Source: Candidatus Omnitrophota bacterium (GTDB lineage: Bacteria > Omnitrophota > Gorgyraeia > Gygaellales > Profunditerraquicolaceae). Taken from it: a stretch of DNA of 64,000 nt. The notes beneath the pieces are model-generated. The model saw nothing but the letters and a program-made list of their open reading frames with translations. It had not been told where the DNA came from and made no database searches. Where the stretch lies: contig JAQTQJ010000003.1 of NCBI GenBank assembly GCA_028712255.1, positions 71,173-135,172 on the forward strand, given 5' to 3'. Of the stretch, positions 40,524 to 41,957 are shown piece after piece (position 1 is the first letter of the stretch; each line of letters begins with the position of its first letter). The position numbers and the translations under genes are program-made.

Positions 40524-41957
40524 ATGTTTTCTCCAGCCGAAGTTTTTAAATACCTGAATTCCTTCGTTAACTACGAAAAAAATACAAACTATTCTTATAA
40601 AGAAGCGTTGAAACTCAAGCGTGTAAAGGATTTTTTATCCTTAATAGGTAACCCCCAGGAATCTTTACGCGTGATTCATATCGCCGGGACAAAGGGTAAG
40701 GGGTCAACTTGCGCTTTTGTTGCCTATATTCTTAAACAAGCAGGTTTTCGTGTTGGTCTTTATACTTCTCCTCATCTGATTGATTTCCGGGAGAGGATTA
40801 GAATTTTGACTCCTGTAGGCGTGTCATTTCCAGGAGTGTTAGCGGCGAAGCAATCTAAGAAACGAGATTGCTTCGTCCGCCACCGAATCAATGTCGGGCT
40901 CGCAATGACACAAGGTATGATTCGTGATTTCGAGGGGATGATATCACAAAAGGAATTATCCGCCTTGGTTAGCGAATTAAAGCCAGTAATTAATAAATAC
41001 AATCGCCAATCAAAATACGGAGCGCTTACTTTTTTTGAGGTTTACACGTCTTTAGCCTTTTTGTATTTTAAGCGCAGGAATGTTGATTTCGCTGTTTTAG
41101 AAACCGGCATGGGTGGCTCACTTGATGCCACTAATGCTGCGACTTCCTTGGTTTGCGGGATTACCCCGATTAGTTTTGAACATGTGCAGAAATTAGGCTC
41201 TACTATTACGCAAATTGCTGGTGAAAAAGCAGGGATTATAAAAAATAAAGGTGCGATTGTAATTTCTGCTCCCCAGGATAAAGAAGCTGCAAAAGTTATT
41301 AGCAATAGATGCAAAAGGTTTCAGGCTAAGCTTTATGAGGTGGGCAAGCAGATAAAATATTCTAAGAATAAAAATGGTTTTATGATTCATGGCCTGCGCA
41401 GAGACTATAAAGATCTGCGTCTGCGGCTCTTAGGTGATCATCAAATGGCCAATGCTTCTGTAGCTGTGGGTTTGGTTGAGGCTTTGAGATTTTACGGTTT
41501 TGATATCGGTAACCAAGTAATACGTTTGGGACTCAATAATACAATCTGGCCGGGTAGATGCGAGGTGTTAAGTGAGAATCCTTTGGTTGTTTTGGATGGG
41601 GCACAGAATTTGGCTTCGGCAGAAGCTTTGAAGTCAGCGATAAGAAAAAATTTTTCCGCTAGGGGAGGAAAATATAAAAAACTCATTCTGGTTTTAGGAA
41701 TATCTGATGATAAAGACATCCTAGGAATTTGTAAAACACTTGGTCCTTTGGCTGATCAGATTATTCTTACTCGCGCAGCCACAACTCGCGCACTTGACCC
41801 TGTGCAATTATCCGGATATTTCAAAAGAAAAGTATATTTGACCCAAAGCGTAAAAGAGGCTAAACTCTTAGCTAAGAACTTAGCGCATAAAAGGGATTTA
41901 ATTTTAGTAACCGGCTCATTATTTGTGGTTGGGGAGTATAGGGATGTTCAAAGATAA
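40524..41957 (+). CDS. folC: folylpolyglutamate synthase / dihydrofolate synthase, carrying an in-frame 31-codon insertion of the palindromic element
   Basis: P-loop HIAGTKGKGST and the Mur-ligase fold. Codons 100-130 (VSFPGVLAAKQSKKRDCFVRHRINVGLAMT) are encoded by a full repeat copy. Confidence 0.85.
   Translation: MFSPAEVFKYLNSFVNYEKNTNYSYKEALKLKRVKDFLSLIGNPQESLRVIHIAGTKGKGSTCAFVAYILKQAGFRVGLYTSPHLIDFRERIRILTPVGVSFPGVLAAKQSKKRDCFVRHRINVGLAMTQGMIRDFEGMISQKELSALVSELKPVINKYNRQSKYGALTFFEVYTSLAFLYFKRRNVDFAVLETGMGGSLDATNAATSLVCGITPISFEHVQKLGSTITQIAGEKAGIIKNKGAIVISAPQDKEAAKVISNRCKRFQAKLYEVGKQIKYSKNKNGFMIHGLRRDYKDLRLRLLGDHQMANASVAVGLVEALRFYGFDIGNQVIRLGLNNTIWPGRCEVLSENPLVVLDGAQNLASAEALKSAIRKNFSARGGKYKKLILVLGISDDKDILGICKTLGPLADQIILTRAATTRALDPVQLSGYFKRKVYLTQSVKEAKLLAKNLAHKRDLILVTGSLFVVGEYRDVQR
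40821..40911. mobile_element. nested palindromic element inserted in-frame within folC
   Basis: gtgtcatttccagg...cgaagcaatct...gattgcttcg...ctcgcaatgacac, with no stop codon in the host frame. Confidence 0.8.

Follow-up and report, generated by a model that had tools for sequence, protein, structure and literature searches.

In-frame 'protein-coding palindromes' are said to have been called by Ogata et al., in 2002, a unique but recurrent feature of Rickettsia. The Rickettsia palindromic elements (RPEs) RPE-1 to RPE-10 are palindromic repeats found between genes and in frame within genes (Ogata et al. 2000, 2002; PMC10969869). Intragenic repetitive extragenic palindromes (REPs) of the GTAG and CGTC types and REP dimers encode 20-30 aa; these repeats lie mainly 3' of co-directional genes, and REPs occur at about the same site in recB of two Xanthomonas species (Di Nocera et al. 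2013, PMC3733652). In its canonical form a CGTC REP measures 20-40 nt and its loop 4-5 nt, the tag is not paired and the tail, which is CCA-like, is short; CGTC REPs are without a dedicated transposase (PMC3733652). Among transposable elements of the miniature inverted-repeat type (MITEs), QMITE1/2 of Coxiella make in-frame fusions, with effects on annotated functional genes at the gene ends and mid-gene in-frame cases in hypothetical proteins (PMC5896051); ERIC, BOX and Correia elements are reviewed in PMC10969869. Here we report on a palindromic repeat that lies in frame within folC, the gene for an essential enzyme of folate metabolism, folylpolyglutamate/dihydrofolate synthase, in a 64,000-nucleotide stretch (hereafter the window; G+C = 40 %) of contig JAQTQJ010000003.1 from a Candidatus Omnitrophota bacterium. 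The folC segment is very probably a copy of a small non-autonomous palindromic repeat, which is or was mobile here and is read through as a tolerated disordered loop.

The open reading frame (ORF) of folC was uninterrupted through a 91-nt nested palindrome, GTGTCATTTCCAGGAGTGTTAGCGGCGAAGCAATCTAAGAAACGAGATTGCTTCGTCCGCCACCGAATCAATGTCGGGCTCGCAATGACAC, as the original prediction, made by a model from the sequence, had proposed. The element runs from the first base of codon 100 to the first base of codon 130. It therefore amounts to 30 complete codons (VSFPGVLAAKQSKKRDCFVRHRINVGLAMT) and a single further base, one codon fewer than the 31 first claimed. Its outer arms are GTGTCATT.../...AATGACAC, and the left outer stem is partly decayed (TTTCCAGGAGTG versus the consensus TTGCGAGGAGCG). 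The inner palindrome CGAAGCAATC-N10-GATTGCTTCG occurred once in the window, against 0 expected. The fold energy of this copy was -38.6 kcal/mol (z = -5.2 against shuffles), and the peptides across the two junctions of the insert read ...RILTPVGVSFPGVLAAK... and ...GLAMTQGMIR.... Contigs of metagenome-assembled genomes (MAGs) may be chimeric at repeats, but the probability that the segment is an assembly or sequencing artefact, or that folC is a pseudogene, is next to nil. An identical 1,634 nt including the element was assembled independently from run SRR22315508, without any frame interruption, and homologous alleles were present in three related loci (L081, L082 and L164; related loci are given L numbers and proteins P numbers below).

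The folC segment belongs to a dispersed family with 13-nt inverted termini, (C/T)GTCATTGCGAG...CTCGCAATGAC(A/G), an inner GAAGCAATC/GATTGCTTC hairpin and a length of 56-91 nt. The terminal 13-mer GTGTCATTGCGAG or its complement gave 15 matches in the window at <=2 mismatches, located at paired copy ends; at <=3 mismatches there were 22 matches versus 9.1 expected, a number attained in 0 of 100 shuffles. Both the 13-nt termini of family members (GTGTCATTGCGAG / CTCGCAATGACAC) and the lack of a transposase ORF inside them are MITE traits. The host gene, the core of its insert, and the five intergenic and three in-frame copies in the window are as follows.

40524..41957, + strand: folC (folylpolyglutamate/dihydrofolate synthase), 477 aa, assigned by PDB phmmer, Pfam and AlphaFold2 (AF2)/Foldseek.
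40821..40911, + strand: in-frame copy, 91 nt, folC codons 100-129 plus one base.
40846..40875, + strand: inner hairpin CGAAGCAATC-TAAGAAACGA-GATTGCTTCG of the folC copy, the best-conserved core, identical including the loop in the sister genome L081.
14840..14913, + strand: intergenic copy, 74 nt, flanked by genes of the same direction; its 13-nt termini are perfect (z -10.5).
33738..33809, + strand: intergenic copy of a diverged subfamily with termini GTCATTCTGAG...CTCAGAATGAC, in the PAC2|HAD spacer.
37918..38000, + strand: intergenic copy, 83 nt, in the spacer between a radical-SAM (rSAM) gene and ychF.
38747..38829, + strand: intergenic copy, 83 nt, filling the ychF|purH spacer.
44467..44548, + strand: intergenic copy, 82 nt, in the folE|PKD spacer.
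58084..58140, + strand: in-frame short form without the inner hairpin (19 codons; copy 58084-58139), in a histidine kinase ORF (57229..58659).
60201..60236, + strand: in-frame right half-copy GATTGCTTCGTCGCCTGCGGCTTTTCGCAATGACAC, peptide IASSPAAFRNDT, in the DUF2341 domain of ORF 59500..62496.

The copies at 14840, 37918, 38747 and 44467, all of which sit between co-directional genes, had been recognized as intergenic at the outset; the in-frame copies at 58084 and 60201 and the diverged copy at 33738 had been missed. Most copies are in short spacers 3' of genes, and a minority are inside genes. The intergenic copies folded at z = -6 to -10 relative to shuffles and contained stops in most frames. 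All ten coding copies examined were stop-free and in frame (window folC, histidine kinase and DUF2341, and those of L081, L082, L164, L166, L167 [nested copy], L168 and L006). Searching the window against Rfam at gathering thresholds returned four tRNAs only, and the element matched none of its families, those of introns included.

These data bear on the possibility that the insert is lost before FolC reaches its mature form, as an intron-like RNA or an intein-like peptide. Nothing direct favors such removal, for which a stable hairpin is conceivable as a processing site, and we consider it very improbable. A constraint on frame and stops would be absent if the segment were spliced out, so the uniformly open coding copies count against removal, as do the stops in the intergenic copies and the absence of an Rfam intron match. 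In addition, 30 residues are far below intein size. We infer instead that the folC copy would be transcribed and translated together with the gene, adding about 30 disordered residues to a normal, functional FolC.

The identity of the host protein was clear. Its sequence is 100 % identical to that of P0001, from a Candidatus Omnitrophica/Omnitrophota MAG. The best PDB phmmer match was Thermotoga FolC (1o5z, E = 1.8e-62), 1fgs was also matched, and Pfam identified Mur_ligase_M (PF08245) and Mur_ligase_C (PF02875). The P-loop GTKGKGS and the SPH omega-loop motif were present, and all 87 invariant FolC columns were kept. FolC sequence resumes on both sides of the repeat, as had been proposed: the alignment to 1o5z was interrupted exactly at the element (query 30-94 = 34-98; query 138-474 = 101-429), which means that Thermotoga has 2 residues where the window FolC has about 41. 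The phmmer alignments to the E. coli and M. tuberculosis FolC proteins were likewise broken around this region. At the insert site the Thermotoga and Lactobacillus structures have a short turn or connection only, shorter than the window loop by roughly 41 residues, so that the 31-aa segment was not found in FolC of unrelated taxa. The related inserts in Omnitrophota FolCs stem from the element family and not from an ancestral segment, and for this reason do not speak against an insertion.

The AF2 model, built with 84 orthologs, was confident overall (predicted template modeling score 0.88), and its Foldseek top matches were all FolC/FPGS proteins (TM scores of 0.74-0.81). Residues 105-132 were the sole segment with a predicted local distance difference test score below 50, and no regular secondary structure was modeled between strand 92-95 and helix 142-162. 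The insert is thus predicted to be a disordered loop, presumably exposed at the surface, on an otherwise intact FolC fold; the mapping onto a structure that the original prediction had called for points the same way. The copy site is a lineage-specific variable loop located just after the SPHLxxFRERIRIL strand, which itself comes after the omega-loop motif.

We then compared loop length, measured as the segment from L95 to D135 (41 residues in the window FolC), in 120 FolC orthologs that were 59-100 % identical and came from Omnitrophota wherever the source names the organism. The loop had 14 residues in 81 of the 120 and 11-16 residues in 98 (these 81 included), which places an indel exactly at the repeat. 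It exceeded 16 residues in the other 22, 17 of which carried element-coded motifs (SLRG, KQS, DCF, LAMT, PRND); an element motif was detected at the protein level in only 2 of the 98 short loops. Near-identical proteins differed in this respect. In four pairs, P0005/P0038, P0012/P0047, P0037/P0061 and P0060/P0048 (94 %, 97 %, 93 % and 93 % identical outside the loop, respectively), a full insert in one protein contrasted with a loop of 14 residues in its partner. At the DNA level, L164 and L165 differed by 7.6 % across folC, with the insert in L164 and a short loop in L165.

The common short loops gave no trace of the element in a shuffle test (p = 0.58 for L165; p ≥ 0.2 for L001 and L003), and the short loop was therefore read as the unoccupied state. 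That a short loop such as that of L165 is a deletion derivative of a filled allele was rejected on the same p = 0.58; real remnants were found only in L083 and L002. In L083, the sister of the clade of the window, L081 and L082, the 14-residue loop still has part of the right terminus, GGGCTCGCAATCAC (p = 0.0015), and in the L002 loop only the two termini remain (p < 0.0005). As to whether the 'empty' loops are conserved DNA hairpins that draw in the element, they were among the most stable windows of the gene in L002, L003, L008 and L019, but not in L005, L007, L009 and L084.

Among the matches listed in scans of genome and metagenome contigs with the FolC alignment, most were distant FolCs, the useful loci being L001-L009 and L084-L091. 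Filled loops fell into several kinds. L081 (FolC P0002, 83 % identical overall) shared the insertion of the window down to the junction codons, with no difference in the inner hairpin; its copy has consensus-perfect termini, whereas that of the window has the decayed left outer stem and 12 extra nt. L082 and L164 hold the same lineage of folC copy as the window and L081. FolC-site copies were 80-89 % identical to one another, with 68-70 % identity of the window copy to those of L082 and L164, and 62-82 % identical to other copies of their own genomes. The copies of the window, L081, L082 and L164 have identical junctions and are interleaved with short-loop FolCs. Three other loops were occupied differently, each in frame: L168 has a GTCATCCTGAG...CTCAGAATGAC subfamily copy with shifted junctions; L006, whose FolC is 52 % identical, has perfect termini and uses the other open frame (VIARSEATKQS...ARND); and L167 has a 78-nt second element nested within the first. 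These three states indicate separate insertion events at the same loop. One ancient insertion followed by many losses was accordingly rejected as the sole account, since other subfamilies, frames and junctions occupy the loop; for the clade of the window, L081, L082 and L083, one ancient insertion with losses may apply.

The junctions common to the FolC copies of four genomes, and the length of about 14 residues in 'empty' Omnitrophota FolCs versus about 2 in Thermotoga, would also fit an ancestral, lineage-specific extension of the FolC loop that resembles the repeat or was the source of the intergenic repeats. This proposal is hardly credible and is already contradicted, because five or more intergenic spacers of the window, as well as two of its other genes, contain the same termini and inner hairpin, near-identical FolCs are without the insert, other subfamilies and reading frames are found in the same loop, and the insert shows no constraint at the peptide level, as follows.

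Between the window and L081, synonymous divergence (dS) outside the insert was 0.70 (proportion of synonymous differences, pS, 0.46), nonsynonymous divergence (dN) was 0.089, and their ratio (ω) was 0.13 over 435 codons. Inside the insert (26 aligned codons), 1 synonymous and 8 nonsynonymous changes gave a pS of 0.05 and an ω of about 2.9. L081 and L164 gave pS 0.62 and ω 0.14 outside versus 0.15 and 0.55 inside, and L164 and L167 gave 0.26 and 0.15 outside versus 0.05 and 1.4 inside. Because the insert is present in both the window and L081, folC has been under strong purifying selection while carrying it, and this, together with the 87 invariant columns, argues against a pseudogene. The insert itself is without constraint as a peptide. 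At silent sites, however, the insert is 4-9 times less diverged than folC, on small counts; this reflects either a nucleic-acid constraint on the palindrome or an insert that arose later than the gene lineages in which it is found. The insert peptide has no evident function, and what is conserved is the nucleic-acid palindrome.

The low silent divergence is an argument for another explanation, in which the palindrome is kept for a role as nucleic acid, either as an mRNA hairpin (pausing, stability or processing) or as a DNA site for a protein of the host or of the element, the element having become domesticated or addictive. In accord with this idea, pS in the insert was far below that of the gene in all three comparisons, the inner hairpin and its non-pairing loop were identical over 27 nt between the window and L081 while, of the 9 codons immediately downstream of the element, 4 had undergone silent changes, and the hairpin is still strongly stable. 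Against it, about 80 % of orthologs do without the insert, the outer stem of the window copy is decaying, and remnants with termini only or the right end only exist. A younger age or lateral spread of a cassette may also explain the low divergence, which was measured on only 26 codons. On balance we regard such a role as quite improbable.

To examine mobility, syntenic loci of L082, L164, L166, L167 and L168 were compared with the window spacer by spacer. The folE|PKD spacer is 133 nt long with the element in the window and 20-37 nt long without it in the five relatives. The element of the rSAM|ychF spacer is found in the window only and is missing from all five. Between ychF and purH, the window and L167 both have the element, L167 in another sub-variant; the spacer is empty in L082, L166 and L168, and L164 has a hairpin there that is unrelated to the element. 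In the PAC2|HAD spacer, L164 and L167 have a GTCATTGCGAG-type copy of another subfamily than that of the window, and L082 and L166 are empty. Orthologous intergenic sites are thus filled or empty among relatives, indicating that the family is or was mobile. According to the account we favor, the family spreads or has spread, most copies coming to rest in spacers and a minority in genes, where those that survive would be the ones that keep the frame, bring no stop and fall in loops tolerant of extra residues; the copy in folC would then be a neutral passenger.

Several observations weigh against this account. A neutral passenger of equal age would not give the 4-9 times lower silent divergence, and repeated transposition alone fails to explain the group formed by the window, L081, L082 and L164, with its identical junctions and interleaved short loops. 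No target-site duplication was recognizable in the flanks of 8 copies or in the filled/empty comparisons, in which the spacers were too diverged for exact boundaries. No transposase was tied to the family, and no parent insertion sequence (IS) with the same termini was found in the window or in the loci of the relatives. Transposition is therefore inferred from the filled/empty polymorphism only, and deletion could also yield that polymorphism.

With regard to the window, L081, L082 and L164, the identical junctions and the interleaving with short loops suggest lateral replacement of a loop cassette, a homing-like process or an old polymorphism. In a stronger version, the element would do more than insert at random and survive where a loop permits it: the filled loop would be a cassette that propagates itself, a homing-like process or recombination placing copies at the same position in orthologs of different lineages, and within essential genes its nucleotide sequence would be kept constant. 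We hold this to be rather unlikely. If true, the element would be a selfish palindrome that persists site-specifically in coding DNA and steadily supplies loop-length polymorphism to housekeeping proteins across Omnitrophota.

The tolerated insertion that we favor for folC has counterparts in other proteins. In the histidine kinase, 19 codons (ASLRGAAGDAGTSCPRNDT) are inserted in the inter-helix loop of the HisKA_3 domain, and their excision in silico extended the HisKA_3 match from 1-32/68 (24.6 bits) to 1-68/68 (29.6 bits). This copy equals the PAC2|HAD copy of L164 minus the inner hairpin. Among 121 histidine kinase orthologs, the segment had 45-46 residues in 87 and longer inserts in 29, and the proteins with inserts tended to lose the HisKA_3 Pfam call. 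The longer segments included termini-only remnants and another GTCAT-type subfamily (SHPRESGDQ...SAGMT), and one sub-variant (SLRGHEVPEAIS...APRNDG) was shared by histidine kinase P0122 and FolC P0060. The half-copy in the DUF2341 domain contributes 12 codons to a 998-aa protein, and its in-silico excision improved the DUF2341 match, which scored 65.5 bits before and 68.6 bits after.

A 26-position profile of the insert peptide, searched against 1.84 billion representatives, gave few significant matches. Element-coded peptides were found in a Maf-like protein, a type II secretion system (T2SS)-B-like protein and a KdtA fragment, along with many small ORFs. The top matches P0242, P0247 and P0256 were repeat proteins, of thrombospondin type among others, and were rejected as false positives. 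Family termini, perfect or nearly so, were also noted on other metagenomic or MAG contigs (L044 11301-11395, L101 4338-4421, L145 9864-9950 and L091 12851-12943), one of them from Anaerolineaceae (Chloroflexota) with a copy just 3' of folC, and the family may reach beyond Omnitrophota. The L101 copy had a 663-aa stop-free span in the census, which was not confirmed as an open frame on closer inspection.

Other repeats were observed around these loci. The purH|folC spacer (window 40403-40503) holds a GGGGACGGTTCTG...CAGAACCGCCCCC hairpin of a second family, D2, in the loop of which lies a third GTCAT-type palindrome (40427-40484, TGTCATTCCCAC...GGGGATGACA), that is, a palindrome within a palindrome. 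Both are present in L081, the outer hairpin alone in L082 and L164, and neither in L165-L168. D2 comprises GC-rich hairpins (GGGGACGGTTCTC-loop-GAGAACCGTCCCC) directly 3' of genes (7479, 21513/21547, 26449, 37868, 47914 and 62581), some of which are followed by T-rich runs that give them a terminator-like look. Like the main element, D2 hairpins are present or absent at orthologous spacers among relatives. In L167, the ychF|purH element (8349-8422) is read through by the annotated purH, which has 534 aa there versus 518 aa elsewhere; this is likely a false N-terminal extension arising from the repeat. A 40-nt palindrome at 13278-13317, with family-like termini (GTCATCTTGAG...CTCAGAATGAT), overlaps the 3' end of ORF 11725..13287 and may be a minimal or decayed family member. 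The window also contains a 300-nt direct repeat of 71 % identity (54426-54725 / 55924-56223), probably paralogous domains of adjacent ORFs. Inside an ORF, a 33-nt stretch is duplicated in tandem (17412-17477).

The sole transposase in the window is a Y1/IS200-type ORF (45675..46163 on the - strand; PF01797, 53.6 bits). On either side of it lies a 50-nt palindrome, which belongs not to the main element but to a family designated D3 (GTTATCCACAG-GTAGGGGA...TCCCCTAC-CTGTGGATAAC), and the whole forms a REPtron-like unit at 45625-46214; other D3 copies lie at 11591, 24863 and 59338. D3 carries the GTAG tag, which is typical of REPs associated with REP-associated tyrosine transposases (RAYTs). A Y1_Tnp gene was present at the same position in L165 and L167, and none was found in L082 and L166.

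The locus provides a clear case of in-frame palindromes in an uncultured, deeply separate phylum, with information at the population scale. For two unrelated proteins, about 18-25 % of orthologs have such inserts in the same loop; the forms range from full and nested copies to truncated ones and remnants, and the insert state turns over faster than the proteins diverge. Omnitrophota may thus serve as a natural system for selfish palindromes and the loop-length variation that they create in essential enzymes, site permissiveness and DNA- or RNA-level maintenance. Since the inserts disrupt Pfam calls such as HisKA_3 and the repeats appear as small ORFs, MAG annotation pipelines would gain by recognizing them.

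A literature search with the terminal and inner motifs returned unrelated primers only, and neither this sequence nor a palindromic repeat of Omnitrophota was found in the searchable literature, in line with the original prediction that the element is undescribed. In-frame MITE insertion, held in the original prediction to be known but rare, is indeed known, but it is less rare than that and is documented beyond Rickettsia (PMC3733652, PMC5896051, PMC10969869). The likeness to RPEs held as a way of working, by analogy, and relatedness to them is not established. Both are dispersed palindromes of several subfamilies, located between genes and in frame within unrelated housekeeping genes, and in both the peptide is tolerated at positions compatible with the fold (here, by prediction, the disordered FolC segment and the HisKA_3 loop). 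The Omnitrophota element is smaller (56-91 nt versus about 100-150 bp), and its hosts are free-living or episymbiotic Omnitrophota rather than Rickettsiales. Unlike RPEs, it occupies the same ortholog loop repeatedly across many lineages and has no conserved insert peptide. Given the Omnitrophota host and the lack of an Rfam match, we do not file the element as an RPE; it is likened to RPEs by behavior, not by sequence.

The resemblance to other systems is similarly partial. Like REPs, the element is palindromic and is located mainly 3' of co-directional genes and at times within ORFs, and, as with CGTC REPs, no transposase is tied to it. The element ends in (C/T)GTC, followed by an 8-bp stem from AT (ATTGCGAG ... 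CTCGCAAT-GAC), in keeping with the CGTC-REP rule. However, its units are longer (56-91 nt versus 20-40 nt); its 'loop' of 26-65 nt has a hairpin of its own (the short histidine-kinase form excepted), unlike that of CGTC REPs, which sets it apart from a REP unit; its tag is mirrored at the other end and is thus paired, again unlike the CGTC REP tag; and Omnitrophota is not among the phyla reported for CGTC REPs (PMC3733652). With REP doublets forming hairpins (REPINs) and their RAYTs, the REPtron, it shares a long hairpin of two inverted arms and a Y1 (IS200-like) transposase in the window, but that gene is flanked by the GTAG-type D3 and not by the main element, and does not qualify as its RAYT. 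With MITEs it has in common small size, terminal inverted repeats, no transposase gene, multiple copies, presence/absence polymorphism and occasional in-frame insertion; it is a near-complete palindrome, whereas MITEs have terminal inverted repeats around a unique core, and neither a target-site duplication nor a parent IS was found for it. The behavior of the Omnitrophota element is thus of a known kind, to which our analysis adds that, in two unrelated proteins, the same loops have been occupied recurrently and across the clade.

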